DNA of 64,000 nt from Squalus acanthias (taxonomy: Eukaryota), in assembly GCA_030390025.1 (NCBI GenBank), contig CM059432.1, positions 5,332,001 through 5,396,000 of the forward strand, given 5' to 3'. Below, in pieces: positions 15,407 through 56,024 of the stretch; position 1 is the stretch's first letter, and the number at the start of each line of letters is the position of its first letter. The position numbers and the translations under genes were made by a program. Under the pieces are notes generated by a model. The model did no database searches. It saw only the letters and a list, made by a program, of their open reading frames with translations, and was not told the DNA's origin.

Positions 15407-15841
15407 CAGGTCAGAGGCTAGGTATTCTGCAGTGAGTGTCTCACCGCCTGACTCCCCAAAGCCATTCCACCATCTACAAGGCACAAGTAAGGAGTGTGAT
15501 GGAATACTCTCCACTTGCCTGGATAAGTGCAGCTCCAACAACACTCGAAGCTCAAAACCATCCAGGACAAAGCAGCCTGCTTGATTGACACCCCATCCAC
15601 CACCTTAAACATTCACTCCCTCCACCACCGGCACACTGTGGCTGCAGTGTGTACCATCTACAAGATGCACCGCAGCAACTCGCCAAGGCTCCTTCGGCAG
15701 CACCTCCCAAACCCGTGACCTCTACCATCTAGAAGGACAAGGGCAGCAGGCGCATGGGAACTCCACCACCTCCAAGTTACACACTATCCTGACTTGGAAA
15801 TATATCGTCATTCCTTCATCGTCGCTGGGTCAAAGTCCTGG
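15407..15841 (+). repeat. Inverted duplicate arm of the LINE-B 3' region
   Basis: Reverse complement of 15959-16094 plus ~300 nt absent from that arm; shares private variants. Confidence 0.8.
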
Positions 15842-18800
15842 GATGTGGGCGTCGCTGACAAGGCCAGCATCCTTAATTGCCCATGAGAAAGTGGTGGTGA
15901 GCCGCCGCTGCAGTCGTTGTAGTGAAGGTACTCCCACAGTGCTATTAGGGAGGGAGTTCCAGGACTTTGACCCAGCGACGATGAAGGAACGGCGATATAT
16001 TTCCAAGTCAGGATAGTGTGTAACTTGGAGGTGGAATGGCTTTGGGGAGTCAGGCGGTGAGTCACTCACTGCAGAATACCTAGCCTCTGACCTGCTCTTA
16101 TTGCCACAGTATTTATGTGGCTGGCCCAGTTAAGTTTCTGGTCAATGGTGACCCCCAGGATGTTAATGGTGGGGGATTCATCGATGGTAATGCTGTTGAA
16201 TGTCAAGGGGCGGTGGTTAGACTCTCGTTTGTTGGAGATAGTCATTGCCTGGCGCGAATGTTACCTGCCACTTATCAACCCAAGCCTGAACGTCGTCCAG
16301 ATCTTGTTGCATGCGGGCATGGACTGCTTCATTATCTGAGGAGTTGTGAATGTCACTGAACACTGTGCAGTCATCAGCGAACATCCCCATTTTTGACCTT
16401 ATGTTGGAGGGAAAGTCATTGATGAAGCAGCTGAAGATGGTTGTGCCTAGGACACTGCCCTGAGGAACTCCTGCAGCGATGTCCTGGGGCTGTGATGATT
16501 GACCACCAACCACCACAACCATCTTCCTTTGTGCTAGGTATGGCTCCAGCCAGTGGAGTGTTTCCCCCCCCGATTCCCATTGACTTCAGTTTTACATGGG
16601 CTCCTTGATGCCACACTCGGTCAACTGCTGCCTTGATGTCAAAGGCAGTCACTCTCGCATCAACTCTGGAATTCAGCTCTTTTGTCCGTGTTTGGACCAA
16701 GGCTGTAATGCGGTCTGGAGCCGAGTGGTCTTGGCGGAACCCAAACTCTGCATCAGTGAACAGGTTATTGGTGAGTAATTGCTGCTTGATAGCACTGTCG
16801 ACGACACCTTCCATCACTTTGTTGATGATTGAGAGTAGATTGATGGGGTGGTAATTGGCCGGATTGGATTTGTCCTGCTTTTTATGGACAGGACATAACT
16901 GGGCAGTTTTCCACATTGTCAGGTAGATACCAGTGCTATAGCTGTACTGGAACAGCTTGGCTAGAGGCGCAGCTAGTTCTGGAGCACAAGTCTTCAGCAC
17001 GACAACCAGAATGTTGTCGGGGCCAATAGCCTTTGCAGTGCACTCAGCCATTTTTTGTTATCACGTAGAGTGAATCGAATTGGCTGAAGACTGGCTTCTG
17101 TGATGGTGGGGACCTCAGGAGGAGGCCACCATGCATCATCCACTCAACACATCTGGCTGAAGATGGTTGCAAACGCTTCAGCCTTGTCTTTTGCACTCAC
17201 ATGCTGGGCTCCACCATCATTGAGGATGGGGATATTCATGGAGCCGCCTCCTCCTCCCGTTAGTTGTTTAATGGTCCACCACCATTCACGACTGGATGTG
17301 GCAGGACTGCAGAGCTTTGATCTGATCTGTTGATTGTGGGATCGCTTAGCCCAGTCTATAGCATACTGCTTCCGCTTTTTAGCATACATGTAGTCCTGTG
17401 TTGCAGCTTCTCCAGGTTGGCACCTCCTTTTTAGGTGCGCCTGGTGCTGCTCCTGGCATGCTCTTCTACATTCCTTATTGAACCAGGGTTGGTTCCTTGG
17501 CTTGGTAATGGTAGAGTGAAGCATATGCCAGGCCATGAGTCATAACGGCACAGAAGGAGGCCATTCGGCCCATTGAGTCCGTGCCAGCTCTCTGCAGAGC
17601 AATCCAGTCAGTCCCATTCCCCCGCTCTATCCCTGTAGCCCTGCAAGTTTATTTCCCTCAAGTTCCAGTCTACCCTTCAAAACATTGAGTGTCTCCGCTT
17701 CCACCACTTCCGTCGGCAGCGAGTTCCAGGTCCTCACCACTATCTACGTAAAAAAGTTATTCCTCACATCCCCCCTGTATCTCTTGCCCAAAACTTTAAA
17801 TCTGTGTCCCCATGTCCTTGTACCATCAACTAGTGGGAACAGCCTTTCCCCGTCTAGCCTATCCAAACCAGTCATAATCTTGTACACCTCTATCAAATCA
17901 TCCCTCAATCTCTTTGCTCTAATGACAACAAATCCAGCTTCTCCAACCTGTCCTTGAGGTTACAGATTGTGGTGGAATACAATTCTGCTGCTGCTGATGG
18001 CCCACATCACCTCATCGATGCCCAGATTTGAGCTGCTAGATCTGTTCTGAATCTATCCCATTTAGCACGGTGGTAGTACCACACAACACGATGGAGGGTG
18101 TCCTCAGTCTGAAGACGGGACTTTGTCTCCACAATGACTGTACGGTGGTCACTGCTACCAATGCTGTCATGGACAGATGCATCTGCGACAGGTAGATTGG
18201 TGAGGATGAGGTCAAGTAGGTTCTTCCCCTCGTTGGTTCTCTCACCAGACTGGCAGCTATGTCCTTCATGACTCGGTCAGTAGTGGTGCTACCGAGTCAC
18301 TCTGGGTGGGTGACTTCAATGTCTATCACCAAGAGTGCATTCTGTGCCCTTGCTACACTCGGTGCTTCTTCCAAGTGGTGTTCAACATGGAGTACTGATT
18401 CATCAGCTGAGGGAGGGCGGTAGGTGGTAATCAGCAGGAGGTTTCCTTGCCCATTGCTTGACCTGAAGCCATGAGACTTCATGGGGTCCGGAGTCAATGT
18501 TGAGGACTCCCAGGGCCACGCCTTCCCAACTGTATACCACTGTGCTGCCACCCCTGGTGGGTCAGTCCTGTCGGTGGGCCCGGACATACCCAGGGGTGGT
18601 GATGGAGGAGTTTGGGACATTGGCTGAAAGGTATGATTCTGTGAGTATGACTATGTCAGGCTGTTGCTTCACGAGTCGGTGGGACAGCTCTCCCAATTTT
18701 GGCACAAGTCCCCAGATGTTGGTGAGGAGGACTTTGCAGGGTCGACTGGGCTGGATGTGCCGTTTCCGTAGCTGGTGCCGAGGTCCATGCCGGGTGGTCC

Positions 18801-19122
18801 GTCCAGTTTTATTATCATTGTTTCTCGTAGCGGTTTGTTACAACTGAGTGAGTGGCTTGCTCGGCCAGTTCAGAGGGCAGTTAAGAGTCAACCACATTGT
18901 TGTGGGTCTGGAGTCACACATAGGTCAGACCGGGTAAGGACGGCAGATTTCCTTCCCTAAAGGACATTAGTGAACCAGATGGGGTTTTACGACATTCCGA
19001 TAGTTTTATGGTCCCCATTACTGATACTAGCTTTTTATTCCAGATTTATTCAATTAACTGAATTTAAATTCCCCAGCTGCCGTGGTGGGATTTGAACTCC
19101 TGTCTCTGGATCATTAGTCCAG
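15836..19122 (-). mobile_element. Near full-length single-ORF non-LTR retrotransposon ('LINE-B', CR1/L2-group-like): tRNA-derived head + MER131-like body + decayed APE-RT ORF + short tail
   Basis: APE start KVLLTNIWGL...PDIVILTESYL at ~18735. RT motifs [38 protein letters not shown]-box GAGTTCAAATCC at 19088-19099 (minus). Frameshifted, with a CR1 insert at 17540-17955. Confidence 0.85.
17540..17955 (-). mobile_element. CR1 3' fragment nested in LINE-B
   Basis: CR1 tail; the LINE-B sequence resumes at 17956 with a TGAG duplication. Confidence 0.8.
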
Positions 19123-19464
19123 TCACTAGTGCATGAGGGCAAAAGGAATAGAAAGGTATGCTGATGGGGTGAGATGAAGTAGGGTGGGGGCCTGCTCATG
19201 TGGAGCATAAACACCGACCAGTTTGGCTGAATGGCCTGTTTCTGTGCTGTAAAAACGATGTAAAATTGGCTGTGTTTGTAGAACAGTACAGCTATTCATA
19301 CCATGCTGCCTTAGTAAACCATCTCTGAAAAGTTCACATCGCACTTTTATGCTTCATAAGCACGGTGCACAAATATGGATTGAGACCATCCATATTCAAC
19401 AGCTCTGTGCCATGAGTTGGCTGTTTATTAAAAAAAAATGGTCCTTGATTTTTTTTTTAAATAG

Positions 19465-19555: not shown

Positions 19556-20419
19556 GTGGGTGATGCTAACACCATATACCGCTGTTAATTCAAAATCAGC
19601 TTTTGCTCATAAAATTCAAATTAATTCAGCAGTTCATATTAATCAATTTGAATAAAACGGCACAGGAGACTTTTTTAATACAATTTCAATTCAAATTACC
19701 AGATAATTTGAATGAAGATGAGTAGAATGTGCTTGTAATAATTCACAAAAGATGAACTTTATAACTGTTCTGAAGTTAAGTGTTGCATATCTCTTTTTAA
19801 AAACGTACTTTCCTTCCTTCCTTGCTTGTGGATGGAAAGAATCTCTGGAAAAATTGTAGTTCTAATAAGTGCCAGGTTACACTAGACGTGCAAGAATTTA
19901 ACTACAAACTAATAATCAAACATACAGGACCACAACGAATAAATATATCGGAACCCTCGAGTAAAGCAAATAGCTACTGGTCATTGGAAAAATAAAGTCA
20001 TGGGAAATAACGGATACAGTGTTCATATTCAAACCCACAGGATCATAATGATCTGAACCAAGTATGATTCCGTCAGGGTTTAGGACTGTTACTCAGCCAG
20101 ATCTTTCCTTGGCTGTTAAATCTTTTTGGTACATGCACCAGCATTTTCCTTCGATTGTGCCCAGTGTTGCTCAACTTATTTACGAAGGGTAAGCTGAAAG
20201 AATTTTTAAGAATGCAAGAAATAGGAGCAGGAGTAGGTCACTCGGCTCCTCATGGCTGATCTTCTACCTCAACTCCACTTTCCCACCCTATCTCCTTGAT
20301 TCCCTTAGTATCCAAAAATCTACCGATCTCCGTCTTAATTTGTTCAACTCCCAACTATTTGTATTGAATAGTTCATAATCTGCCTGTTTAGCGTCATGGA
20401 AGAAGGGTGTCTTTTATTT

Positions 20420-20750
20420 TTTTATTCATTCACGGGATGTGGGTGTCGCTGGCAAGGCCAGCATTTATTGCCCTTGAGAAGGTGGTGGTGAGCCGCCGCC
20501 TTGAACCGCTGAAGTCCGCGTGGTGAAGGTACTCCCACAGTGCTGTTAGGGATAGAGTTCCAGGATTTTGACTCGGCGACGATGATGGAACGGCCGATGT
20601 ATTTCCAAGTCAGAGCGGTGTGTGACTTGGGAGGGGAACTTGGAGGTGATGGTGCTCCCGTGCGCCTGCTGCCCTTGACCTTCTAGGTGGTGGAGGTTGC
20701 AGGTTTGGGAGGTGCTGTCGAAGAAGCCTTGGCGAGTTGCTGCAGTGGAG
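20420..20750 (-). mobile_element. LINE-B 3' fragment
   Basis: Reverse complement of the LINE-B tail and ORF end. Confidence 0.8.
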
Positions 20751-21103: not shown

Positions 21104-21885
21104 AGTAACATTCGCACCACACAAGTGCCAGGCAATGACTATCTCCAACAAGCGAGAGTCTAGCCACCTCCCCTTGATATTCAACGGCATTACCATCGCC
21201 GAATCCCCCATCCTGGGGGGGTCACCATTGACCAGAAACTTAACTGGACCAGCCACATCTATATTGTGGTTACAAGAGCAGGCTGGGTATTCTGCAGCGA
21301 GTGAATCACCTCCTGACTCCCCAAAGCCTTTCCACCATCTACAAGGCACAAGTCAGGAGTGTGCTGGAATACTCTCCACTTGCCTGGATGAGTGCAGCTC
21401 CAACAACACTCAAGAAGCTCGACACCATCCAAGAAATAGCAGCATGCTTGACTGGCACCCCATCCACCACCTTAAACATTTACTCCCATCACCACCGGCA
21501 TACCGTGGCTGCAGTGTGTACCATCTACAGGATGCACTGCAGCAACTCACCAAGGCTTCTTCGGCAGCACCTCCCAAACCTGCGACCTCTACCACCGATA
21601 AGGACAAGGGCTTCTGGTGCATGGGAACACCATCACCTACAAGTTCCCCTCCAAGTCACACAGCATCCTGTCTTGGAAATATATCGGCCGTTCCTTCATC
21701 GTCGCTGGGTCAAAATCCTGGAACTCCCTCCCGAACAGCACTGTGGGAGCACCTTCATCACACGGACTGCAGCGGTTCAAGAAGGCGGCTCACCACCACC
21801 TTCTCGAGGGCAATTAGGGATGGGCAATAAATGCTGGCCTTGCCAGTGATGCCCACATCCCATAAACGAATTTAAAAAAAAAAAA
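21104..21885 (+). mobile_element. LINE-B 5'-truncated copy
   Basis: VTFAPHKCQAMTIS...YKAQVRSVLEYSPLAW...HHHLLEGN, tail and poly(A). Confidence 0.88.
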
Positions 21886-36513: not shown

Positions 36514-36685
36514 ATGGCAACAAAAGTTGGTTCATTTGACACTTCTTCTCGCCAAGAGTCCCCCATCAGTCAACCAACATCGAGAATCCAAATAGGTCAT
36601 CCCTGCCAATTTGAGTAGTTATGTTTGAAAGCTGTTATTTCATGTCGCTTTGATCGTGTATAATTTCCTCGTCTCCCTTTTTCAG

Positions 36686-40492: not shown

Positions 40493-40687
40493 TCAGTAAT
40501 GGTGACCATGAAACTACCGGATTGTCATAAAGACCCATCTGGTTCACTAATGTCCTTTTAGGGAAGGAAATCTGCCGTCCTTACCTGGTCTTGGCTATAT
40601 GTGATTCCAGACTCACAGCAATGTGGTTGACTCTTAACTGCCCTCTGAAGTGGCCTAGCAAGCCACTCAGTTAAGGGCAGTTAGGGG
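40493..40687 (+). mobile_element. MER131-like SINE body fragment
   Basis: Same body, joined to aagggcagttaggg (LINE-B tail start). Confidence 0.75.
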
Positions 40688-42203
40688 TGAAGCAGATGGA
40701 ATATGGTATGGAGACAAAATGGGGGAAGGGACAAATAACAAACAGAAAATGCACACGAGAAGAAGAAAGTAAAGAAATGGAAGAGAGAAAAAAGTGAAAG
40801 GGCAAATATAATGCGAAACTGGTAGAGGAAAGATAAAGGATTGCAAAAACGAGATAAACAAATCAAAGCCCAAAGGAAAGACAAGTAATTACAGTAAATA
40901 AATAAGTAAAGATTATGAGAAGGAAGCAAATGAAAGAATGAGAGGAGAAAATTATTGAATTAGATAGATCTGATGATGTCTGCTTCTTTGACCCCTACCT
41001 GCCCCCGAGCCCCCACTCCAGAATCAAGGGTAAGCTGAAGAACTCCTCTCTCATTGGAAAACTACAGCCTGAATTTTGGCCAGATAACATCATTACTCTT
41101 TTCAACACGAGAAGCTCTCTGAACAGAGCCGAGCTGAAGTAGCAGGGCCGTCACATTTGCAGCTGTGCCATGTGTTACTGAGGAATTCCCAGCTGTGTTG
41201 AGCATTGGAGCACTTGAATTTTTTTGGTGGGGGGGCGGTGGGTGGATTGCTTCTCCCAAGAAACCACTCCGAGCATCTTTCAGTGCTTTGGCAGTGTGCT
41301 ATTCCGTGTCTCTCTAGCAGTTGGCTTAATTTTCAAATGGATTGGAGCCCGCGACACCGCTTAAACAGAACAAAATAAATTCATGGTGCTGAGAGCTCAC
41401 AATGAATATAATATTTACGTATAGATACTTGTAGTGTGCTTGTTCAGCCTGCACTAATGCAAGTGCATTTACGTAACAAATCGTGTTAGGAACGTGTTAA
41501 TTGTCTTGGGCATTGCCAATTCTGCAGCTACCTCTAGCACCAAAACACAATGTGAAAAAATAATTTAATCATGCTTGAATTATTTTTAGCAACAAGATTT
41601 TTCTTCTTGAATGTGAAAAGCTAGTAAGTGATGAAAATAGGATTAAAGGAGAACACGAGTGAAGGGGATTAGCAGTACTTTCAGTATTAAGCGCATCTCT
41701 TCAAACCCACCAAAAGTCTTGGTGTAGTCCTATCGCACAGATGTTTTGATATTTACAATATTTTGATTTCTCCCTGCCGCAGAGATTTGCTATTTTGGGT
41801 TCTTGTCGTCAGTGGGGAGCTGCACAGCTGTCATAAGCAACGAAGCCCGTCGGTGATGGCACCGCAGGAGTAATGTGAATTGGTGTCCTTAATGGCTCCA
41901 GATGGCATTGGGGAGCCATCTGAGTTGCAGACCTTTAGTAACTACTGATCTGAAGTGGCAGCCCTGTGCCCACCTCCCAACGGGCACCCGGGGCTAAAAA
42001 GGCATCAATTAGCATTGTTTCCCTTTGAGACGCTCAATGATGTCAGCTGAGCAGCTCCCTTCTGACTCTGGAAATATGAAAATAGCAGAGTTCTACAGAA
42101 GGGTAAATAACAATATAAAATATCTCCTACAAGATCGTTGTTAAATTTAGGCTAAATAAATAAATAATTGGCCAAAAAAAAAGGCCGGAGGGAGGGAGAT
42201 GAG

Positions 42204-42330
42204 CAATGTTCCCGCGCAGGCCGCTCAATGGCTTTAAAATTGATATAATCGGGCTTGCGCGGGAAATTGAATGGGCCGCGCAGCTCGTTAAAGGGGCCAT
42301 GCATCCAAAAAAGAATTAGCGGGAACATTG
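42204..42330. mobile_element. hAT-like MITE
   Basis: TIR CAATGTTCCC...GGGAACATTG; 8-bp TSD GAGATGAG/GAGATGAT. Confidence 0.75.
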
Positions 42331-42768
42331 GAGATGATGAGAAATGTTTTTACTCGGCGTCTCATGATGCTCTGGAATGCGCTGTCTGAAAGGGGAAGTA
42401 TTCAGGGCTATGGGGAAAGCGGGGGAGTGGGACTGATTGACAGCTCTTTCGAAGAGCCGACACAGGCGCAATGGGCCAAATGGCTGCCTCCTGTGCTGTA
42501 TGATTCTATACAAGATGATAAGTTGATAGTTTCAGAAGGGTGAATTTGAAGTTATGCATGCAGGATCAGAATCAATTTCTTCAATTGTATGTGTAAAGAA
42601 AGCTTTGATTCCAGGATGGAATGGAACTTTTTTTTTTCATTTCTATTTTGTGCTGCTTCAGTCCCGATCTGCAAATAAAATAGGCCTGCCCAGTAGCCTG
42701 AGGAAGAGGCTTACAATTTTGCGGAGGACTGAACTGTAGTGTGAGAGGAGATCCTATTGAAACATATA

Positions 42769-43135
42769 CAGGTTGAGCGTCCCAAATCCGGAGTTCCGGA
42801 ATGCTCCGGGCTCCGGGACGATTGGTGGCAGGGGTCCGGAATCCGGACGCCCTGAGGGAGGCTTACCAAAAACCGGAAATAGCGCAACCTGGGCCCAGGC
42901 ATTTCCGGACTCTGCACGTGTTTCTGATGTCCGAAGTCCAGAAATATCGCAACCTGGGCTCGGGCGTTTCCGGACTCGGCACGTGTTTCTGATGTCCGAA
43001 GTCCGGAAATATCGCAACCTGGGCTCGGGCGTTTCCGGACTTCGGACATCGGAAACACGTTCCGAAGTCGGGGGGAAGCCCAAAAACCGGCTCGGCCTCG
43101 GTCCCGAGGTTGCCGAATTCGGGACGTTCTATCTG
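42769..43135. mobile_element. Tc1/mariner-pogo-type MITE with 65-bp internal tandem repeats
   Basis: TA target duplication (42767-42768, 43136-43137) inside a CR1 tail. Imperfect TIRs CAGGTTGAGCGTCCCAAATCCGG / CAGATAGAACGTCCCGAATTCGG. Confidence 0.8.
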
Positions 43136-43545
43136 TAAGGTACTGAGGGGGCTCGACATGGTAGATGCAGAGAGAATGTTCCCCTCGTGGGGAAATCTAG
43201 AACTCGGGGGCATAGTTTCAGAATAAAGGGTCGCCTTTTTAGAACTGAGATGAGGAGGAATTTCTTCTCTCAGACGGTCGTAAATCTGTGGAATTCTCTG
43301 CCCCAGAGAGCCGTGGCGGCTGGGTCATTAAATACATTTAAGGTGGAGATAGATGGATTTTTGCAAGATAAGGGAGTGAAGGGTTATGGGGTGCAATGCG
43401 GGGAAGTGGCTTTGAGCCCAAGATCAGCCATTATCTTATTGAATGGCGGAGCAGGCTCGAGGGGCCAAGTGGCCTATTCATGCTCCTATTTCTTATGTTG
43501 ATGAAGTTACAGACTGTTTTAAAAGCAGATGTGTTCCATTTGCAG

Positions 43546-43662
43546 CTGTCAGATGAAGATAAAGAAAAGGCGGACTCTGGTTTGCAAGGTTCTGCAAGCA
43601 ACAAATCGAAAAAGAAGAAAAAGAAGAAGAAGAAGGGTGAAGATGTGACTACTCCTGCACAA
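43546..43662 (+). CDS. mtdh: Metadherin coding exon with poly-Lys NLS: LSDEDKEKADSGLQGSASNKSKKKKKKKKKGEDVTTPAQ
   Basis: tttgcAG acceptor, CAA|GTAAGC donor, 117 nt, phase 0-0. Matches VSDDDKEK...KSKKKKKKKKKQGED...AQ. Confidence 0.95.
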
Positions 43663-43806
43663 GTAAGCACGTGTGCTGTGTTCAGTGGAAATGTAAAAAA
43701 ACAGCCTACGGTCTCGTGTTTTAAAAGGGGGCTGTGGTAGAGACGGCAAGGGAGATACTCACTACAAAGAGAGAAGGTGGAAAGTTGAGAAAAAATTGAG
43801 GGCTTA

Positions 43807-44115
43807 TAGAATCATAGATTGGTTACAGCACAGAAGGAGGCCATTCGGCCCATCGAGCCCGTGTCGGCTCTCTGCAAGAGCGCTTCAGCTAGTCCCTTTC
43901 CCCGTAGCCCTGCAAATTTTTTTCCTTCAGGTACTTATCCAATTCCCTTTTGAAAGCCACGATTGAGTCTGTCTCCACCACCCTCGCGGGCAGTGCATTC
44001 CAGATCCTAACCACTCGCTGCGTAAACATTTTTTCCCTCATGTCGCCTTTGGTTCTTCTGCCAGTCACCTTAAATCTGTGTCCTCTGGTTCTCGACCCTT
44101 CTGCCAATGGGAACA

Positions 44116-44151
<36 letters not shown>

Positions 44152-44973
44152 TCCAGACCCCTCCTGATTTTGAACACCTCTATCAAATCTCCTCTCAACC
44201 TTCTCTGCTCTAAGGAGAACAACCCCAGCTTATCCAGCCTATCCACGTAACTGAAGTCCCTCATCCCTGGAATCATTCTCGTAAATCTTTTCTGCACCCT
44301 CTCTAAGGCCTTCACATCCTTCCTAAATTGCGGTGCCCAGAATGGGACACAATTCTCCAGTTAAGGCCGAACCAGTGTTTTATAAAAGTTCTTCATAACT
44401 TCCTTGCTTTTGTACTCTATGCCTCTATTTATGAAAGCCCAGGATCCCATATGCTTTTTTAACTGCTTTCTCAACCTGTCCTGCCGCCTTCAATGATTTC
44501 TGCACATATGCCCCCAGATCTCTGTTCATGCACCCACTTTAGGATTGTACCCTTTAGTTTATATTGCCCCTCCTTATTCTTCCCACAAAAATGTATCACT
44601 TCACACTTTTCTGCGTTTAAATTTCATCTGCCACGTGTCTGCCCATTCCACCAGCCTGTCTACGTCCTCTTGAAGTCCATCACTATCCTCCTCACTGTTC
44701 ACTATACTTCCAAGTTTTGTGTCATCTGCAAATTTTGAAATTGTGCCCTGTACTCCCAGGTCATTAAAATACATCAAGAAAAGCAGTGGTCCTTGAACCG
44801 ACCCCTGGGGAACACCACTGTATACCTTCCTCCAGTCTGAAAAACAACCGTTCGCCACTACTCTCTGTTTCCTGTCACTTAGCCAATTCCTGTATCCATG
44901 CTGCCACTGTCCTTTTTATTCCATGGGCTTCAACTTTGCTGGCAAGTCTATTATGTGGCACTTTATCAAAAGC
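43807..44973 (-). mobile_element. CR1 RT fragment with tail and an internal (CT)n microsatellite
   Basis: AFDKVPH, GVPQGS, FADD, ALERVQKRFTR. Confidence 0.9.
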
Positions 44974-46155
44974 CAGATAAATTTTGATCGAGTAGATAGG
45001 GAGAAACCGTTTCCAGTGGCAGGAGGGTTGGTAACCAGAGGACACCGATTTAAGGCAACTGGGAACTTTTTTCACGCAGCATGTCGTCATGATCTGGAAG
45101 GGTGGTGAAAGCAGATTCAACAGTAACTTTCAAAGGGGACTTGGATAAATACTTTTGAGGGGGTGGGGCGGGGGGGGGGAGGGAATTACAGGGCTATCGG
45201 GGAAAGAACAGTGGCAGTGGGACTAATTGGAGAGCTCTTTCAAAGAGCCGGCACAAGCAGTGGGCCGAATGGCCTCTGTGCTGTGTGATTCTATGAAATG
45301 GCTCCAGTGCTGATCGATCTGGTGGAGATGAGAGCTCACAGTGGCGCACTGGTTATGGTAGCGGCAGGTTGTGACAGAAGTTTTGTTGGTGCAGGTTGTA
45401 CAGATAGCAAAGCAGTGGAACAGGGATAAAGTCTTGAATGTGTGCAGAGTTGCCACCAAAGTATTTATGGTGGTGTGCAAGCTTCAGCGTGTCATCCAAA
45501 ACAGGCTGGAGACCCAGAAAGTATGTCGGCTTTGTAACTGGAAGCAGTAGTTTTTGTTACAAGTGGGAAAAAAGGGACTGGAAGGCGCTAGCTGGAATGT
45601 TCCTCCGTCGGATGAAAGGCCACAGGAAAATGGGGGTGTCTTCAGAATGAGGTGTGGATGCTCTAACCAGATCATCACGCTGAGATGTTATGGGAAAGTG
45701 TTGGGAGTGATAAATTATCTGGAGCTAGGATTCACAAGCCCAGTGGCTAAGTTTGCAGAAGATGCAAAGCTAATGGAGGTGGTAGGCTGCAAAGCTGAAC
45801 AGGATAAGCCACAATATACTTGGGAATTGGGAAGACAGGTGGCAGATGAAATTCAATACAGAGGAATGTAAATTACTTCACGTGGGGACAAAAACCCAGG
45901 AAGGGACTCTTACTTAAATGGAAAGAAAATAATGTGTATGGAAAATGAAAGCGATCTGAGGTATCCTGTGACAATAAAATGAAACTATCACATCAGTGCT
46001 CGATGAGTGAAGCAAATCAGATGTTGGGATACATTAAAAGTTCAATATTGAGCCAAAATCGTGTTGTAATCCTGCCACTTTATACATCATTGATGCAACT
46101 GCACTTGGAATAGTGTGTACACTTCTGCAGTATAAAAAGGATGCTGAAATGATGC

Positions 46156-46510
46156 AGAAAGACTTGCATTTCTATAGCGCCTTTCACGACTACTGGACGT
46201 CCCAAAGCGCTTTACGGCCAATGAAGTACTTTTTGAAGTGTAGTCACTGTTGTAATGTCGGAAACAGCGGCAGCCAATTTGTGCACAGCAAGCTCCCACA
46301 AACAGCAGTGTGATAACGAGCAGATAATCTGTTTTAGTGATGTTGATTGAGGGATAAACATTGGCCAAGGACACCGGGGCGAACTGCCCTGCTTTTCTTC
46401 GAAATGGTGCCATGGGATCTTTTACCCAAGAGAGCAGACGGGGATTCGGTTTCACGTCTCATCCAAAAGACGGCACCTCCGACAGAGCAGCGCTCCCTCA
46501 GTACTGCCCT
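46156..46510 (-). mobile_element. Deu-domain SINE within an older CR1 fragment
   Basis: Same family. Confidence 0.8.
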
Positions 46511-47060
46511 GGCGTGTTCTCACTGGAAAGCAGAAGGTTGAGCGCTGATATGATGGCTGTTTTTAGGATTCTGAAAGGACTCGGTAATGTAGACCATGGC
46601 CAGCTATTTCACCTTGCCCAGGACAGTAGAACCAGAGGGCACGGCCTGCGCTTGAAGTGGGGTAAATTCTAAATTAATTTGCGGAAATATTGTTTCGGTG
46701 AGCGAGTGGTAAATCTGTGAAACAGGCTCTCGAGGGAGACAGTGGAAGTAGATATTGATTCGTTCAAATGCAAATTAGATCGACTTGTTTCACAAACTGT
46801 GAGTAATTTGAGACATGGCATATAGTAAGTGTAGCATGCGTGGGAGGAACGGGTGTCGTGGTTCCCACTGGGGATTTTCCTCGCCTCATATCAGGATCTG
46901 TTGTAGACTAATTGATAGAGATTGATTTGCCATGCTTAGTCAACAACTCCATTATTGTTGTAGGACGTGACTATCTGGATGGTAGAAGGCGAACTCGATT
47001 GGGCCTTGGTCTTTTTTCATCGAGCAATTCCCGAGTGTAAAACTCGAGTGTGGAGACGTG

Positions 47061-47199
47061 CAATGTTCCCTCTTTTTTTGGGGTGCGCGGCCCCTTCAAA
47101 TTTTTGCGCGTGTATGGTTTCTGCCATATAAAAGCTGGTGAGCGGCCCGCGCGGGACCTCCAGACTGCCGTGCCGCCGCGCAGCTTAGCGGGAACGTTG
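47061..47199. mobile_element. hAT-like MITE, same family
   Basis: CAATGTTCCCT...GGGAACGTTG; internal similarity to the 37308 copy. Confidence 0.65.
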
Positions 47200-47879
47200 A
47201 TGGTAGGTCGTTTTAACCTGACTCGCCGGCAGGAACCCCACAGGATCGGGTGGAACGGCGGTTTTGCACCCCGCCCAATATCGCTCTACACTGACTTCAA
47301 CAGAGAGTGAAATTGGGCAGGGAGTAAAACCAGCGTCGCACCCGATCCCGTCAGCCTCCCGACGGGCGAGTTAAGATTAAAATTGCCCCCCATGGTGCCT
47401 GGGCGCAACTTGAAAGACGACTTGGCTACTAAAGCAGATAATTGAGAGAATAAAGACTTGTATCGTGATTGAAGGGAAAAAGATTTGAAGTGAAGACCGA
47501 AGTCTTTCAAGACTGCATCTCATCACCCACCTTGTGCAGTATTGTAATGAACCAGGGAGTGGGAACTAAACAGTGAATGTGAATGAGCCTGAAGGTTAAG
47601 GACAGCCCAGAGCCTCGTAACGGACTGGCTACTCTCACTCGGACCTTGGTGTCATAAGTCAGCTGGCTACTGAATGAAAGAAAGAAGTGCGGGGGGGACT
47701 CGCAATCAGCTTCCAAAAGAAAGCAAATCTAGGTTGTGCCCGTAGGAGGGAGAGCAGAGAAGGATGAGGACTGAAGAAAGGAGACGTTGATGGTGTGGGG
47801 GTGGATGTGATGGAGAAGCTGGTACACCTGGCAATTAGTATGCCAGGCAGAGAGAGCTGAAAGCGAGAGTTGCCGAGAC

Positions 47880-48480
47880 ACATTGCTTCAGCTCCCTGTG
47901 CTGTTGACAGGCTGTGGAGGAGCAAAGACGTATTGTGACATGTGCAACAGAGAATGTATTGGAGGCTAGTGTGCAGTGGATGTCTCTACAGTTTTGAGAG
48001 CTGGATTCTGACGCAAGCACAGATGATGATTCTGGATGCTTTTGAAATGCCTTTTTTTATACATTCACGGGATGTGGGCGTCGCTGGCAAGACCAGCATT
48101 TATTGCCCATCCCTAGTTGCCCTTGAGAAGGTGGTGGTGAGCTGCTGCCTTGAACCACTGCAGCCCATGTGGTGAAGGTGCTCCCACAGTGCTGTTCGGG
48201 AGGGAGTTCCAGGATTTTGACCCAGCGACGATGAAAGATCGGCAATATATTTCCAAGTCAGGATGAAGTGTGATTTGGAGGGGAACTTGGAGGTGGTGGT
48301 GTTCCCATGTGCCTGCTGCCCTTCTCCTTCTAGGTGGTGGAGGTCGCAGGTTTGGGAGGTGCTGTCAAAAATTTGCCTGGTACAAAATAACTAGCACTAG
48401 TGTTATGAGAAGGGGGGACTTGCATGCAGTTGCCGTGAGAAGATTTAGAAGGGCAATATATGTGGGCCATGGTTTGAGTG
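47880..48480 (+). mobile_element. Highly decayed RTE-like LINE fragment split by LINE-B
   Basis: YWRLVCSGCLYSFESWILT...LDAFEM then W.KITSTSVMRR...YVGH, resembling RTE LLYGCESWTL...LDAFEM...W.DKITNEEVLRR...YLGH. Confidence 0.5.
48052..48367 (-). mobile_element. LINE-B 3' fragment
   Basis: Reverse complement of the tail and ORF end. Confidence 0.8.
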
Positions 48481-49077
48481 ATGCCCTCCAAATGTAATGG
48501 AATGGCTTTGCATGGGGAAAAGACCATGTGGAAAACCAGAGCAAACAGTGCGCAACAACTTGTATTTGTATAGCACCGATAACTTAGGAAAATGTCCCAA
48601 GGCACTTCATAGAAGCATTAACAAACAAAATTTGACACTGAGCCACATGAGATATTAGGGCAGAAAGAGGTAGGTTTTAAGGAGGGAGGAGAGGCAGAGA
48701 GATTAGGGAGATAATTCCAGAGCTTAGGGCCTTGGCAGCTGAAGGTTATGTGATGTGCTGCATGGTGAAGCTGTCTTGTATAAATGGCCCACGGCCAAGT
48801 TTTTTTTTAAACCTATTGCATTGTGTAGTCATGGTACAATATGTGGCTGTACTAGTTTGGATCGGCCCTTTTGGGTTTTCAATTGGGTTAAATTGGTCAC
48901 AGAAATTTAATTACTATTTAAACATCATCATGATGTGTTTTGTCTTGTAGCTTTTATTGGAAAACATTAGTTTTATTAACTGCTGCATTTACTGGAATCC
49001 TCGTGGTTTGCATACAGTAGCTCCTGGCTTGGCCATAGTACATTCCCGATCACAGTAAGTGATGTGATTCCATCCCT

Positions 49078-49551
49078 AGAAAGCAAGAAAGACTTGCATT
49101 TCTATAGCGCCTTTCACGACCTCGGGACGTCCCAAAGCGCTTTACAGCCAATGAAGTACTTTTTGAAGTGTAGTCACTGTTGTAATGTAGGAAACGCGGC
49201 AGCCAATTTGCGCACAGCAAGATCCCACAAACAGCAATGTGATAATGAGCAGATAATCTGTTTTTAGTGATGTTGATTGAGGGATGAATATTGGCCATGA
49301 CACTGGGGAGAACTCTCCTGCTCTTCTTCGATATAGTGGCCGTGGGATCTTTTACATCCACCTGAGAGCAGACGGGGCCTCGGTTTATCGTCTCACCTGA
49401 AAGACGGCACCTCCGACAGTGCAACACTCCCTCAGTACTGGCACTGGAGTGTCAGCCTAGATTTTTGTGCTCAAGTCCCTGGCGTGGGACTTGAACCCAC
49501 AACCTTCTGACTCCGAGGCAAGAGTGCTGCCCACTGAGCCACAGCTGACAC
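49078..49551 (-). mobile_element. Full-length Deu-domain SINE
   Basis: Same family. Further partial copies at ~9533-9700, 11990-12215, 34935-35175, 51213-51425 and 59188-59395. Confidence 0.85.
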
Positions 49552-49774
49552 TAGAGGAGGGAAGATAAATGGGGGGTTGGTGGGAGAGAAAGGGAGTGAG
49601 GCAAAACTGATTCTAAAGGGACAATCCTCAGTTACATGCAGGGATTAGAATGCCAAAATATTAATTAAGCAATTTTCTGTTTCGTTAACTTTTATTCCCT
49701 TCAGACTATTTTTGAAAATTAAGAAATTCTCACCTGCTTTTAAGTGTTTAAAATGTTTACTGAATTTATGAAAG

Positions 49775-49897
49775 GAGGCGGAGGAGCAAGACAAGGAGCC
49801 CATTAGTGGAGACCAGGAGCAGCTTGTTGTACCAGCACAGCCTGAAAAGGAGACTGCTCCACCCGTTGAAACCATATGCACTAGTGAACCAGCTGAG
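49775..49897 (+). CDS. mtdh: Metadherin coding exon: EAEEQDKEPISGDQEQLVVPAQPEKETAPPVETICTSEPAE
   Basis: GAG|GTAAGA strong donor; weak aaAG acceptor. 123 nt, phase 0-0. Ends TICTSEPAE like human TISTSDPAE. Confidence 0.85.
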
Positions 49898-50279
49898 GTA
49901 AGAATTAGCACGTCAGAGCGTGTGAATTTTTAATAAACGGCAGACTTAAAAGTTGGATTTGACGTGTGAAATCTTGCTGATTCCAGAGACGCGGGATTTA
50001 AATTGATGTGCGAGACCGAGCTGCTCTGCCGAGTTCAAAATTTCGCACCTCATTTGGTTCTTTTGCTGTGTCTCATCCTCCACCTTCAGTTAATGACAGC
50101 TAATCCCAAACTCTGCTCTCTCTATCCTATCACGCAACACGTCCTCCTCATGCATCACCCCTGCCCTTGGTGACCTACGTTGGCTCCCGGTCCCTCAATG
50201 CCCCAAATTTAAAATTCTTGTGCAAGTCCCTCCATGGCTTTGTGCCTTTTTATCTCTGTAACCAACTGCAATGATCTAA

Positions 50280-50710
50280 CACGGTGGCATAGTGGTTAGC
50301 ACTGGTGCCTCACAGCGCCAGAGACTCGGGTTCGAATCTGACCTCGGGTGACTGTCTGTGTGGAGTTTGCACATTCTCCCCGTGTCTGCGTGGGTTTCCT
50401 CCGGGTGCTCCGGTTTCCTCCCACAGTCCAAAAATGTGTGGGTTAGGTTGATTTGGCTATGATAAATTGACCCTTAGTGTTAGGGGGGATTAAATATGTG
50501 GGGTTATGGGGATAGGATGGGATATGTTAGGGGGAATTAAATACGTGGGGTTACGGGGGTAGGGTGGGATATGTGTACTGTGGGGATTAAAGCAGGGACA
50601 GGGTACTGGATTTGGATGATCAGCCATGATCGTATTGAATGGCGGAGCAGGCTCGACGGGCCGAATGGCCTACTCCTGCTCCTAGATTCTATGTTTCTAT
50701 GTTTCTATGT
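50280..50710 (+). mobile_element. V-SINE (HE1-like) with CR1/HER1-type tail, inserted in an L2 fragment
   Basis: tRNA head TGGCATAGTGG / GGTTCGAATC; V-domain tgtggagtttgcacattctccccgtgtctgcgtgggtttcctccgggtgctccggtttcctcccac; tail gatcagccatgat...ggcctactcctgctcct and (ttctatgt)n. Confidence 0.88.
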
Positions 50711-51475
50711 TAATTTACCACCCCCGCCCACTCCATCTCTCTGACTCTGGCCTCCAGTGCATTCTCACCCCTCCCTCTTTACATGGCCTCCAGCACTTGG
50801 ATGTCTCTGTTTCATCTCTGAGAAATGTATGCAGCACTATACAATTTGGTCCCAGGTTCTTCTGACTTAATTCTACTCTTTTGACTATACAGTTCAACGT
50901 CTATTTGCCGTTGTTGACTGCCTTGCATTGGTTGGATACGCTGAGCATTGAGTTTACAAAAACACATGGGTCTCTTTCTGTTTCATAACTAGTTCAACAG
51001 CGTTCATGGAATGCGTGTGTTCCTTATTCTTTTTGCTGTGTGCAGCTCCTAACTGCAGACAGAAACTCTTTCTGCCAGTTGGGGAGTCTAGGACATGGGG
51101 ACATAGCCTGAAAGTTAGAGCAGAACTTTCAGGAGTGAAGTTAGGAAACATTTCTACACGCAAAGGGTAGTTGACGTTTGGAACTCTCTTCCGCAAACAG
51201 CAATTGATGCTAGAAAGAAGACTTGTATTTTTTATACAGCGCCTTTCACGACCACCAGACGTCTCAAAGCGCTTTACAGCCAATGAAGTACTTCTTGAAG
51301 TGTAGTCGCTGTTGTAATGTGGTAAATGCGGCAGCCAATTTGCGCACAGCAAGCTCCCACAAACAGCAATGTGATAATGACCAAATAATCTGTTTTTGTT
51401 ATGTTGGTTGAGGGATAAATATTGACTAGGTCAATTGTTAATTTTAAATCTGAGATTGGTGGATTTTTGTTACAA

Positions 51476-52752
51476 AGCTAGGTGGGAAAGTAAGCTGTGA
51501 GGAGGACAGAGTCTGCAAAGGGATTTGGACAGGTTAAGTGAGTAGTCAAGGAGGTGGCAGATGGAGTATAATGTAGGAAAGTGAGGTTATTCACTTTGGT
51601 AGGAAGAATAGAAAAACAGAATTTTTTAAATGGTGAGAAACTATTAAATGTTGGTGTTCAGAGAGATTTGGGTGTCCTTCTACACGAAACACAAAGTTAG
51701 CAAGCAATTAGGAAGGCAAATGGTATGTTGGCCTTTATTGCAAGGGGGTTGGAGTGCAAGAGTAAGGAAATTTTTTTATATTCATTCACGGGATGTGGGC
51801 GTCGCTGGCAAGGCCAGCATTTATTGCCCTTGAAGATGGTGGTGGTGAGCTGCCCTCTTGACAACTGAGTGACTTGCTCGGCCATTTCAGAGGGCAGTTA
51901 AGAGTCAACCACATTGCTGTGGGTCTGGACTCACGTATAGGCCAGACCAGGTAAGGACGGCAGGTTTCCTTCCCTAAAGGACATTAGTGAACCAGATGGG
52001 TTGTTACGACAATCCAGTAGTTTCATGCTCACCATTACTGATACTAGTTTATTATGCCAGATTTATTTAATTAACTGAATTTAAATTCCCCAGCTGCCGT
52101 GGTGGGATTTGAACTCTTGTCTCCAGATCATTAGTCCAGGCCTCTGGATTGCTAGTCTAGTAAAGTAACCACTATGCTGCATTTGTACAGGGCTTTGGTG
52201 AAGCCACACATGGAGTACTCTACAGTTTTGCTCTCCATACCTAAGGAAGGATATTCTTGCCTTAGAGGGGGTGCAACAAAGGTTCACTAGATTGATTCCT
52301 GGATGAGAGGATTGTCCTATGAGGAGAGATTGAGTAGAATGGGCCTATACTCTCTGGAGTTTAGAAGAATGTGAGGTGATCTCATTGAAACAAGTAAAAT
52401 TTTGAGAGGGTTTGACAGGGTAGATGCTGAGAGACTATTTCCCCTGGCTGGAGAATCTAGAACTAGGGGGCATAGTCTCAGGATAAGAGGTCGGCCATTT
52501 AAGACTGAGATGAGGAATTTCTGCGCTCAAAGGGTTGTGAATCATTGGAATTCTCTGCCCCAAAAGGGATGTAGAGTTGAGTATATTCAAGGCTGAGGTA
52601 GATAGATTTTTGGACACTAAGGGAATCAAGGGATATGGGGATAGGGCTGGAAAGTGGAGTTGAGGTAGAAGATCAGCCATGATCTTATTGAATGGCGGAG
52701 CAGGCTCGAGGGGCCGAATGGCGTACTCCTGCTCCTAATTCCTGTGTTATGT
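51476..52752 (+). mobile_element. CR1/HER1-like 3' fragment interrupted by a MER131-like SINE
   Basis: Parallels 24260-25025. Confidence 0.85.
51781..52180 (-). mobile_element. tRNA-headed MER131-like SINE with LINE-B tail, nested in CR1
   Basis: A-box-like AGCATAGTGG and B-box (52105-52116); same body and tail. Confidence 0.85.
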
Positions 52753-52899
52753 TAACCAAAGGTATTAATGGATATGGGGCAAAGGCAGATCAGCCCTGAT
52801 CTCATTGAAGAGGCAGAACAGGCTCGAGGGGCTCAATGGCCTACTCCTGTTCCTATGTTACACTCACTGTACCTTTACCTAGATTCCCTCACTGTACCT

Positions 52900-52936
52900 T
52901 TACCTGAAGAAGGAACGGAGCTCCGAAAGCTCGTAA
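52900..52936 (+). ncRNA. Minimal hammerhead ribozyme, same family as 8038
   Basis: TTAC-CTGAAGA-A-GGAAC.GGA.GCTCC-GAAA-GC-TC^-GTAA, one mismatch in helix II. Confidence 0.65.
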
Positions 52937-53874
52937 TTTTAAATAAAACTGTTGGACTATAACCTGGTGTTGTGCGACTTCTCATATGTTACACTTGACT
53001 ATTAAATTACATCAGCCATTGCTCTGCTCAGTTACATATTCTGTAATTCCTGAGCTGCTTCCTCCGTGTCCACTGCCCCACTGGTATCGTTTGCAAATTT
53101 GACCTCTTTGCGTTGAGTTTCTGAATCTGGGTCATTTATGTAAATTACAAACAGCAGCGGTCTCAACACCAAGCCCTTAGGTATGCCACTCAATACTTAC
53201 CCTCATACCCCGACGTACCTCATCTACCCTTCCACCTATTTTTTTTATCCATTCCCATGGATCCCTGCAGCTTTGAGGGGGTCATAGATACAGGATTAAA
53301 TGTAAGAGTTTTACAAGAGTGGAGGAGAACGTTGGTGTGAGGTGGTGGAAGTCACTCCAGGGTTAGTGGTTGAGGCAGAAAACTACGTCGGCATTCAAGG
53401 TTAGATTGGAGAGGTGGAGGAAGGAAAAGTGGTTGAAAGGATATGGGAATAGAATAGGTAAATGTGATTAGAACGATTTGCTCGCATTTTGGCCCCATGT
53501 AAGATTTTTGAAGTTGGGAACATGAAATGTACAGGATAATGGAATCCTATTTTACGATAGGCCTGTGGAAATGTAGGATTGGGAAAAGCCCATCCCTATG
53601 AAGGCAGATCGAGTGCCTCCCATTAAAGGTTTTAAGGAGGGCTAGTCAACAAAATTAACAATTTAATTAAAGCGATTAAGACAAACAAAATGTTCCACGC
53701 AGTGCTCACTGGTCACAGAGAGCATCCAGTGGACACCGTGTGATGGTATTAAAGGGTCACTTGAGTGCAAACTGCAGTTTTAAACATGGACAAGAAGTCA
53801 CAGGCGATTCCAGGCATCCTGGACCTGTGGATGGTTGACTTTGCTGGGCCCAGGAGCAAGCCGGCCGGGAGACT

Positions 53875-54348
53875 TGACTATTCCAGTACTCACCTGGCCG
53901 CCCTCCATCAACTTCACCTCATCCAAAACTCTGCTGCCTGTATTCTATCCCGTACCAAGTTGCGCTCGTCCATCAGCCTGTGCTCGATGGCTTGTATTGG
54001 CTTCTGCTCCCTCAATGCCTCAAATTTAAAATTCTCCTCATCGTGTTTAAATCTCTCCATGGCTTCGCTGTTCCCCATCTCTAACTTTCTTCAGCCTTAC
54101 GCCCCTCAAGAACTCTGTGTTTCTCTAACTTTGGCCTCTTGTGCATTCTCCACTCTCTTCACCTGCCATTGGTAGCTATGCCTTCAGCTGTCTAGGCCCT
54201 ACACTCGGTAATTCCCTCCCTAAAACCAACAACTTTGACCAAACATTGGGCCCCCCCCCAATCTTCTCCTCTTGGACTCCGCATCTTTAAACCTCAAGTG
54301 CCAAGGGAAGTTTTTCGACATTAAATTTGCTATACAAATGCAAGTTGT
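53875..54348 (+). mobile_element. L2 LINE 3' fragment
   Basis: RLDYSS..LA...LHLIQNSAA.IL and tail gctatacaaatgcaagttgtt. Other L2 bits at 9700-9990(-), 33520-33683(+), 48550-48745(-), 50070-50790(+). Confidence 0.75.
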
Positions 54349-54486
54349 TGAAAGAGAAAGATGGGTTAACGTTTCAGGTGGGATCCTTCACCCGTACATG
54401 TCGAGCATTTCCTCCTTTTCGTTAGCAGAATTGTGTTTTCTTTTTAAAATCTCCTAAACTTTTTTTAATTTGTCATTTCCTTCCAG

Positions 54487-54640
54487 GTTGAAGAGGCACA
54501 GCCAGTAGTCATCACCCAAGAACCAGCTGTAATTGTGGAAAGTTCTTCCCAGGATATCACTTCCCAAGTGCCAGACACACTATCAGAGTCGGAACCATCC
54601 GCTTCTGCCACTAAACAGAACAGCCTGCCTCCTTCACAAG
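54487..54640 (+). CDS. mtdh: Metadherin coding exon: VEEAQPVVITQEPAVIVESSSQDITSQVP...TKQNSLPPSQ(A)
   Basis: tccttccAG acceptor, AAG|GTCAGT donor, 154 nt, phase 0-1. SQVP and TKQNS.PPSQ motifs. Confidence 0.94.
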
Positions 54641-54717
54641 GTCAGTGTTTGAAATCTCTCTAAATGTGGCCAGGGTTGTATGTAAATATGTAATGAAGAT
54701 CAGACTATTTTTTAAAA

Positions 54718-55130
54718 TTAATTTATGGGATGTGGGCGTCGCTGGCAAGACAAGCATTTATTGCCCATCCCTAATTACCCTCGAGGAGGTGGTGGTGGTG
54801 AGCCACCGCCTTATACAACTGAGTGTCTCGCTAGGCCATTTCAGAGGGGCAGTTAAGAGTCGACCACATTGCTGTGGGCCTGGAGTCACATATAGGCCAG
54901 ACCGGGTAAGGACGGCAGATTTCCTTCCCTAAAGGACATTAGTGAACCAGGTGGGTTGTTAAGACAATCCGGTAGTTTCATGGTCACCATTACTGATACT
55001 AGCTTTTTATTCCAGATTTATTTAATTAATTGAATTTAAATTCCCAGCTGCTGTGGTGGGATTTGAACTCACGTCTCCGGATCATTAGTCCAGGCCTCTG
55101 GATTACTGGGCCAGTGACATGGGTTACCAT
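54718..55130 (-). mobile_element. tRNA-headed MER131-like SINE with LINE-B tail
   Basis: B-box GAGTTCAAATCC; body ggttcactaatgtcctttagggaaggaaatctgcc...cactcagttg joined to the LINE-B 3' end. Confidence 0.85.
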
Positions 55131-56024
55131 AAATGTGTGTATATGTAATGTAATGAAGATCAGACAAATTCTACGTATGGCCGCCTGCTCCTATTATGTC
55201 CTTAATGCCACCTGGAAGGCAAGTCTGCGCGAATGTCAAGTGAGAAGCAAATTAATGACTCCACAGTTGAATCGCCTGCTGGTGTCCATTGGTAGGGTTA
55301 CGACTGAAGAAAGGTCTCTTGGGTACGGTACCAGAGGCCCGCTGATGGCCGTACAAGTGTACTCTACCACGATTCTCTCCTCACTGAAGAGAGTGGAGGA
55401 GGGAGAGAAATAGCTTCATTACCATAAATGTAGACCTACAAATTGGACTCCCAAGATAAAATGTTTCTGCGGTAAATCGGTTCAAGAAGGCAGCTCACCA
55501 CCACCACCTCCTCGAGGGCAATTAGGGATGGGCAATAAATGCTGGCCTTGCCAGCGACACCCACATCCCATGAATGAATTTTTTTTTAAAACCTTTGTGC
55601 AGGGTTCATAGTTATGTTTTCAGATGGAATAATTCCTATTTGTTTTAATTTCAGTCCACATGGTCCCTTCCTGAATTGACAAATAACTCAAAAGATCTGC
55701 ATTCTTTGATATTTACTGAATTTAGTTTTTCTTCAGTAAGAGACCTTTCTCACTATGTTGTGAAGACCAGTCACTCTTGTACCATCTAAGTGTTGGTTAT
55801 GGAAAAGATGTGATGTTTATGCAATGCAACAAGGAGTTACATTGAAGTTGGGACAGAGTTGATGAGCACCTATGCCACAGAAAAAGCAGTAATTAACTAC
55901 CTTTTTTCTTTTTGCGGTTCTCCTCCTAATTTTATGTTGGATTGTTGTGCTCTTCAAGGAGAATGCACCGCTAATAATATTGAATTTATATAGCATCTTT
56001 CACGGCAAAATGTGTCTAAGCAAT

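Follow-up and report, generated by a model that had tools for sequence, protein, structure and literature searches.

Three short repeats in the genome of Squalus acanthias raise the question of how a short interspersed element (SINE) comes to carry both ends of a long interspersed element (LINE). The repeats lie in a stretch of 64,000 nucleotides (nt) of contig CM059432.1 (positions 5,332,001 to 5,396,000 of the forward strand, assembly GCA_030390025.1), which is referred to as the window. The elements S55, S52 and S40 are located at about 54.8k, 51.9k and 40.5k of the window, and their respective junctions are J1a, J1b and J2. They were compared with LINE-B, a near full-length LINE copy that runs from 19131 to 15841 on the minus strand. 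With a probability of roughly 0.75, the three elements are non-autonomous internal-deletion derivatives (short internally deleted elements, SIDEs) of elasmobranch Zenon and fall into at least two junction classes. The short elements and their flanks contain the following features.

54707..55130, minus strand: S55, with a tRNA-like head (B box at 55070-55058), body, junction J1a at 54813/54812, LINE tail of the long type and A-rich end
55148..55165, minus strand: 5' copy of the 18-bp target-site duplication of S55, with about 18 nt between the duplication and the head
54688..54705, minus strand (54705-54688): 3' copy of the same 18-bp duplication
51770..52175, minus strand: S52, with an A-box-like word TAGTGGT (52174-52168), B box (52116-52104), body, junction J1b at 51862/51861, LINE tail of the short type and A-rich end
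40493..40686, plus strand: S40, with the 3' 180 nt of the body, junction J2 at 40672/40673 and 14 nt of tail

The initial annotation of this DNA described the three elements as bipartite forms in which the 5' part of LINE-B is fused to its 3' end at different points. Alignment to the LINE-B 5' segment and tail bears out this description, and all three junction strings were found at the positions listed. To the left of each junction, the three short copies and the 5' part of LINE-B show 90-92% pairwise identity across 172 body columns, and the left break is common to all three junctions within 4 nt. To the right, S55 and S52 contain the entire LINE tail and an A-rich end. J1a and J1b are at most 2-3 nt apart on both sides, as proposed earlier, and the tail entry point of J2 lies some 27 nt beyond theirs. 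The 5' and 3' ends of the short forms are homologous to one LINE from which the middle (about 2.9 kb) is absent; the forms keep the LINE 5' end and the last 55-95 nt, comprising the end of the open reading frame (ORF), the hairpin of the 3' untranslated region and the A tail. S40 is truncated at both ends, beginning mid-body at 40493 and passing into unrelated sequence after its 14-nt tail. Two junction classes at least, J1 and J2, are present among the three elements.

S55 and S52 are short (406-424 nt), non-coding, and have a tail in common with their partner LINE. Each was inserted as a complete short unit, because an 18-bp duplication flanks S55 and S52 interrupts a CR1 copy. This CR1 copy continues on both flanks of S52, with about 4 nt lost and no duplication. 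No target duplication was found for S40.

The J2 class was also detected outside the window. Public contigs of four runs from four organisms (X1, X2, X13 and X17, the last tentatively taken as RNA) were aligned to window positions 15830-21900 at 80% likeness, and 15 of 10,362 joints were inspected, with counts that are incomplete in three of the runs. The joint 18849->21807, which connects the body end to the tail position of S40, was found in 12, 26, 26 and 3 contigs of X1, X2, X13 and X17, respectively, with 39-56 letters on the shorter side. J2 is a multicopy class shared between organisms, because a joint at its position recurs in contigs of four organisms, and the proposal that there is more than one junction holds. 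Two further head-to-tail joints with different left breaks were each found once (20493->18869 in X2 and 20550->18765 in X1). Contigs covered the body more deeply than the adjoining coding bins, a difference that does not measure copy number and carries no weight here. Splicing was considered as the cause of the junctions and rejected; GT follows the left break of J2, but no AG precedes either tail entry point.

The parent LINE was identified from its own 5' end. The LINE copies of the window, on which the junction positions rest, have the following features.

15841..19131, minus strand: LINE-B, a decayed near full-length elasmobranch Zenon copy with head and body, a single frame for APE endonuclease and reverse transcriptase (RT) and a short tail; the first 45 nt or so of the head are missing
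18841..19131, minus strand: LINE 5' segment common to the short elements, with the B-box-like word GAGTTCAAATCCC at 19099-19087; it ends in CACTCAGTTG with a private 4-nt duplication
18013..18738, minus strand: APE endonuclease region, beginning CKVLLTNIWGL, frameshifted (tblastn with P0005/P0006)
17536..17954, plus strand: CR1-type 3' fragment of 419 nt, inserted in this LINE copy only
16250..17036, minus strand: RT region (Pfam RVT_1, E 3e-09)
20417..20747, minus strand: 5'-truncated Zenon copy with a short-type tail (the same 13-14-nt deletion as in S52)
21105..21880, plus strand: 5'-truncated Zenon copy with an intact long-type tail, in which the ORF end (..WNSLP..FKKAAHHHLLEGN*) is followed by the tail hairpin; this copy is the reference for junction positions
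55478..55582, plus strand: tail-only Zenon copy

LINE-B consists, in order, of the 5' segment (19131->18841), the endonuclease from 18738, the 419-nt CR1 insert, the RT and a tail at 15905-15841. The form without the CR1 insert (joint 17535->17955) was found in 8, 18, 21 and 5 contigs of the four runs, and the head letters absent from LINE-B are supplied by loose ends at 19122 in 745 (X2) and 1013 (X13) contigs. The Zenon element of the window is about 3.3 kb long, with one APE and RT frame and no ORF1, and its own 5' end is a tRNA-like head and a body of about 260 nt. There is no room for ORF1, because the APE starts about 100 nt after the common 5' segment. The APE region matches exo/endonuclease/phosphatase clusters in a protein atlas with scores of 0.92-0.95, and the tails of the window copies end A-rich.

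Consensus sequences were compared using the first 400 letters of each row of Table S2 of Stuart et al. 2026 (PMC13343379), with one Zenon row outside the comparison. A 15-nt body motif matches five Zenon rows and no other row in the letters searched. All seven elasmobranch Zenon rows displayed, from five species of sharks and ray, have the tRNA-like head and body at their start, followed by the LINE. The head, body and coding start of the window LINE match the published Zenon consensuses by eye, and SquAca_Zenon-1 is the closest, including its head version. Because the motif and the consensus rows match, LINE-B is assigned on sequence to elasmobranch Zenon (CR1 group), and the 'SINE body' corresponds to the Zenon 5' end. 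The available text of PMC13343379 describes Zenon elements, without ORF1 and with a poly-A tail, in five elasmobranchs, the coelacanth and the hagfish, and reports that vertebrate Zenons are not monophyletic.

In a quick RT tree, which contained no clade-labelled references, LINE-B grouped with Branchiostoma and unnamed invertebrate ORFs (SH-aLRT 88), outside an RNase-H-bearing set (100) and apart from the vertebrate CR1 of the window. The best named protein matches of its RT are gene models of Heptranchias, Mobula, Pristiophorus and Heterodontus, followed by Branchiostoma; of ten short protein matches looked up, nine are whale-shark models and one is from Heptranchias. A PDB search returned only L1, R2 and group II intron RTs. 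LINE-B contains the motifs GVPQGSVLG and terminal WNSLP and lacks a C-terminal knuckle, features that we take to argue against an RTE or Vingi parent. The parent LINE was not placed in either of these clades and matches the Zenon consensus instead.

The initial annotation also named, as an observation that would count against it, a body that is never linked to an APE elsewhere in the genome. This does not hold, because the body runs into the endonuclease in whale-shark gene models and in the published Zenon consensuses. Four of six protein matches to the APE start, all four of them whale-shark gene models, begin in the body-encoded peptide. The X13 loose-end consensus at the body end (18849; 614 contigs) likewise continues as the LINE does, with an agreement of 0.53. 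The body motif had no matches in metagenome, prokaryote and viral collections or in phages. Zenon-derived peptide also occurs in public shark and ray gene models (anoctamin-7-like, SLC15A1-like, an Sp4 isoform and others), which are probably annotation artefacts or cases of exonisation.

Gene models with Zenon-derived peptide: P0001, P0002, P0010, P0032, P0033, P0036, P0037, P0041 and P0220-P0224

The direction of derivation was examined among the four window copies. These are star-like: each copy has 4-8 private changes, and the three informative columns (of 172) support three different splits, so the short forms and the LINE are not two old separate lineages. The short copies are as near to LINE-B as to each other. 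By eye, the head version of S55 and S52 is the one found in LINE-B and the Squalus consensuses, and it differs from the version in the consensuses of white shark, catshark and whale shark. Because the short copies carry the LINE head version of this lineage, sequence comparison favours LINE to short form as the near direction. A similar likeness of short copies to the Zenon of their own lineage has been used as a derivation argument for Persaeus, a SIDE of Lepidoptera (PMC6740152). The coelacanth and hagfish Zenon consensuses displayed, which have low-confidence ends, do not begin with this head. Since these rows and Persaeus are without it, this Zenon lineage probably acquired the head at an early date, and the deletions that gave the short forms probably came later. 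The initial annotation was right to consider derivation from the LINE, which is favoured, but it posed the two directions as alternatives, yet both can hold in sequence.

The position of a start codon was dropped as evidence of direction. The argument was that the body ends with the ORF start codon, but in the six consensuses that could be read the third codon is a stop. The (A)TG at 18868 of LINE-B is in frame with the APE once the 4-nt duplication is discounted, and two whale-shark models start there; in the consensuses, judged by eye, the frame to the APE shifts with the A-rich tract. An ATG in good context occurs near the end of the 5' segment (18868-18840, minus strand; 54839, 51885 and 40650); in S55 and the published consensuses, the frame that it opens stops at codon 3. 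The corresponding codon is GTG followed by a stop in S40 and ATG followed by GAG in S52 and LINE-B, and LINE-B has no other in-frame ATG ahead of the APE.

More distant relatives of the RT were found at 80 metagenome loci, and the best 30 show 32-41% RT identity to LINE-B. No head or body similarity was found in these relatives, no B box in the 14 of the best 30 that have upstream sequence, and no tRNA in 20 upstream regions. They are uninformative on the ancestral head, because ARAGORN also misses the shark heads.

Features of polymerase III (Pol III) transcription are associated with the head. A B box is present in S55, S52 and LINE-B, and A- and B-box-like words are clear in the published consensuses; these words, the weak Rfam tRNA match of S55 and the absence of TTTT suggest that Pol III transcribes the short forms. 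In this lineage, two similar hairpin words resembling an anticodon arm appear by eye to lie in tandem in the head (52160-52120 and 55113-55075, both on the minus strand). The second arm of the head appears different in the white-shark, catshark and whale-shark consensuses, again by eye.

LINE proteins recognise the 3' tail and mobilise RNAs carrying that tail. In the explanation proposed here, we infer that the tRNA-like head joined ancestral Zenon before sharks and rays parted. The Zenon RT would copy the tail of 55-95 nt and then jump to the end of the 5' segment at a few common letters; the short words GTT and CAA/TCAA occur at the end of this segment and twice in the tail. The product of the jump would be an element of about 400 nt with an internal promoter and an enzyme-recognised tail, so that transcription (probably by Pol III) and SINE-like copying in trans may follow. 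One deletion would suffice for a SINE-like build, because Zenon already begins with a tRNA-like head. The deletion may have happened more than once, or once with a later 27-nt secondary deletion and tail exchange.

The number of events is reflected in the junctions and in the tails. Over 270 nt of head and body, S55 and S52 are separated by a single gap column, whereas bringing their junctions to one point takes two indels within 5 nt. Their tails also differ, that of S52 being the short type of the copy at 20417 and that of S55 the extra-CAC type of the copy at 55478. Separate events for these two junctions are somewhat favoured on this evidence. A single founding deletion (J1) is a possible though less probable course. 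Small indels would then have separated J1a from J1b afterwards, and J2 would have arisen by the secondary loss of 27 nt between two CAAG words of the tail; this course is a variant of internal deletion rather than an alternative to it. It is consistent with the closeness of J1a and J1b and with the common left break, and J2 could be a secondary deletion because the J1 and J2 entry points are both CAAG-like words. The paired indels, the different tail types and the further joints with left breaks at 18869 and 18765 argue for more than one deletion. Repeated origin, as proposed in the initial annotation, is upheld in that more than one junction class exists; J1a and J1b may be one event, and J2 may be secondary.

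Two further explanations have to be weighed against the one proposed here. An ancient SINE with a tRNA head, body and Zenon tail, possibly of the MER131 lineage, could be ancestral, with Zenon taking its 5' end by a template switch and with the junction differences produced by tail exchange with Zenon subfamilies. The headless Zenon rows of coelacanth and hagfish (low-confidence ends, from vertebrate Zenons that are not monophyletic) and headless Persaeus/Zenon of Lepidoptera would fit this order of events, tail exchange is common in SINEs according to the literature, and J2 may be old because it is common to four organisms. However, the head of the short copies is the lineage-specific one of the local LINE, and these copies differ from the LINE no more than among themselves; with the head present on Zenon in sharks and ray, continuing exchange would be needed to explain the likeness, and the ancient SINE is regarded as unlikely. 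The elements could also be one-off products, that is, full Zenon insertions whose middle was deleted as they inserted or afterwards; a hot spot would set the ends, and no copy would give rise to others. A hot spot is needed in any case, thousands of rare joints occur in the contigs, and the window junctions each differ slightly. The J2 position is nevertheless among the best-supported joints, each of three DNA runs having it in 12-26 distinct contigs, and high-copy Zenon SIDEs have a precedent in Persaeus as described in PMC6740152, so that one-off products are very unlikely.

Several observations weigh against internal deletion with multiple junction classes and Pol III-transcribed products. 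The tail of S40 is only 14 nt long with 12 of 14 positions matching, a score that 59 of 5000 random 14-mers of the window equal, and J2 is weak on the window sequence alone. In the other organisms the J2 match is one of joint position, the intervening letters not being displayed. J1 is absent among the 15 joints inspected out of 10,362, and this class rests on the two window copies S55 and S52. The genome-wide evidence consists of public contigs, protein collections and the published consensus table. The short tail type is a weak marker, because slippage between two GGGCAA words can recreate it. The Rfam tRNA match of S55 (55113-55056) scores 19.5 bits, below the gathering score of 29; S52 gave no Rfam tRNA match and ARAGORN finds no tRNA in the shark heads. 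The absence of TTTT from 2872 nt of LINE-B and 3651 nt of other copies fits Pol III transcription, but it is not significant for LINE-B alone (62 of 500 shuffles also lack it) and modest for the other copies (10 of 300 shuffles); TTTT occurs 15 times in 4306 nt of CR1 and, in 14 metagenome relatives that are distant and mostly T-richer, 3-25 times per ORF. The tail hairpin was found in all four copies tried, with z-scores of only -1.4 to -1.8. Gene conversion or repeated exchange of heads between SINE and LINE could also make the heads alike.

Other Zenon sequences in the window are related to these elements. The tail-only copy at 55478-55582 lies 700 nt from S55 in the opposite orientation, and among 13 aligned tails it has the extra CAC and adjacent variants in common with S55 (54707-54812) alone; the two either belong to the same subfamily or were subject to local conversion. 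An inverted Zenon piece (15407-15841, plus strand, against 16094-15959, minus strand) adjoins the 3' end of LINE-B. It contains a stretch missing from LINE-B, its ends are 98% and 97% identical to the sides of the LINE-B gap of about 295 nt, and its appearance suggests a local inversion-duplication, not an independent insertion. A 97-nt body fragment (15135-15231, plus strand; 75-80%, a diverged-type match) lies within a CR1 region beside a repeat at 15230-15384 (96% to 29375-29527) and is perhaps of an older subfamily. A diverged Zenon-type tail at 11616-11739 (plus strand), 74-81% identical to the other tails, possibly represents an older lineage.

The window also contains other repeats. A second and more abundant SINE family of about 460 nt is present at 1087-1553, 6811-7255, 33966-34417, 36080-36514, 49077-49552 and other positions, and is presumably SacSINE1-like. 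A decayed RT element occupies 26400-29178 on the plus strand; Pfam found no family in the two frames scanned, and from its motifs we take it to be Penelope-like. A G+C-rich tandem repeat of 65 bp is located at 42876-43041 (2.6 copies, 94% matches).

The origin of SINE bodies is an open question, for which the current model has two steps, internal deletion followed by addition of a small-RNA head, with RTE and Vingi as sources. Here the parent and its derivatives coexist abundantly and the parent is of the CR1 group and already bears a head, so one step suffices. From which junction classes sharks and rays share and which they do not, the number and age of origins can be counted in public assemblies. 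Repeat annotation is affected as well, since masking may assign the same 5' sequence to either a SINE or a LINE, and shark gene models contain parts of the element. The MER131-like label that the initial annotation gave to the short elements is tentative. A broader and rather doubtful reading is that elasmobranch Zenon would be an autonomous protein-coding LINE transcribed by Pol III from a captured tRNA head, which gave several true SINE families by single hot-spot deletions; if the MER131 resemblance holds, the tetrapod repeat would be a fossil of the same system, the autonomous partner of which survives only in sharks and rays. MER131 is listed as an unclassified SINE ending in poly-A in the available parts of PMC5753468 and PMC6904449.

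The published elasmobranch Zenon elements (SquAca_Zenon-1 to -3 and CarCar, RhiTyp, ScyCan and HypSab Zenon-1) are likewise about 3.3 kb long, with no ORF1 and an A tail (PMC13343379). The main text available for that account does not mention tRNA, polymerase III or internal deletion, contains 'SINE' in one reference only, and describes neither the head nor short derivatives. CR1-Zenon-like LINEs were counted in a whale-shark preprint, as far as its available text states, and Zenon has also supplied tails to bivalve SINEs according to parts of the literature. Beyond the Zenon consensus table, the literature searched contained no description of a tRNA-headed Zenon or of these short forms, with subscription papers and Repbase/Dfam outside the search, and nothing was found in literature passages and supplements on Squam2 as a name for the short element. 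Among the tRNA-headed SINEs of sharks and rays, HE1 (V-SINE, HER1 partner; PMC3747384) and SacSINE1 (Deu, L2 tail; PMC5499810) are set apart by their descriptions in the available text, having only the tail in common with their own LINE.

According to Kojima 2018 (PMC5786205), in the parts available, SINE bodies have come from RTE and Vingi, and bipartite forms without an ORF from RTE, Ingi, Vingi and R2; the head is acquired in a second step. The statement of the initial annotation that such derivatives are described mainly for RTE and Vingi is correct for this source, but the LINE here is Zenon, a clade already known for repeated internal-deletion derivatives through Persaeus (PMC6740152). 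Bov-tA/Bov-A/BovB and SINE2-1_ACar/Vingi-2_ACar likewise combine a tRNA head with the 5' and 3' parts of a LINE (PMC5786205; Kojima 2015, PMC4494074). In the accounts available, the head of Bov-tA and SINE2-1_ACar was added after the deletion and the parents are RTE and Vingi, whereas in the shark forms the head was already on an autonomous CR1-group parent.

The closest known system is Persaeus, a SIDE of Lepidoptera Zenon with at least four origins (Wang et al. 2019, PMC6740152). According to the sections available, it is 260-390 nt long with microhomology at the break, for which a template jump was proposed. Persaeus and the shark forms are alike in having a Zenon parent and in consisting of the 5' end, ORF end, 3' untranslated region and poly-A. 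The available description of Persaeus gives no homology to tRNA, 5S or 7SL, no Pol III promoter and a variable middle, whereas in the shark forms the two LINE parts are joined directly and the tRNA-like head came with the parent LINE. The general idea of repeated Zenon deletion derivatives is already published for butterflies and moths, and Zenon SIDEs with repeated origins are known; what is new is a vertebrate case, with two or more junction classes, in which the parent has a tRNA-like head and its deletion products are therefore built like SINEs from the start.

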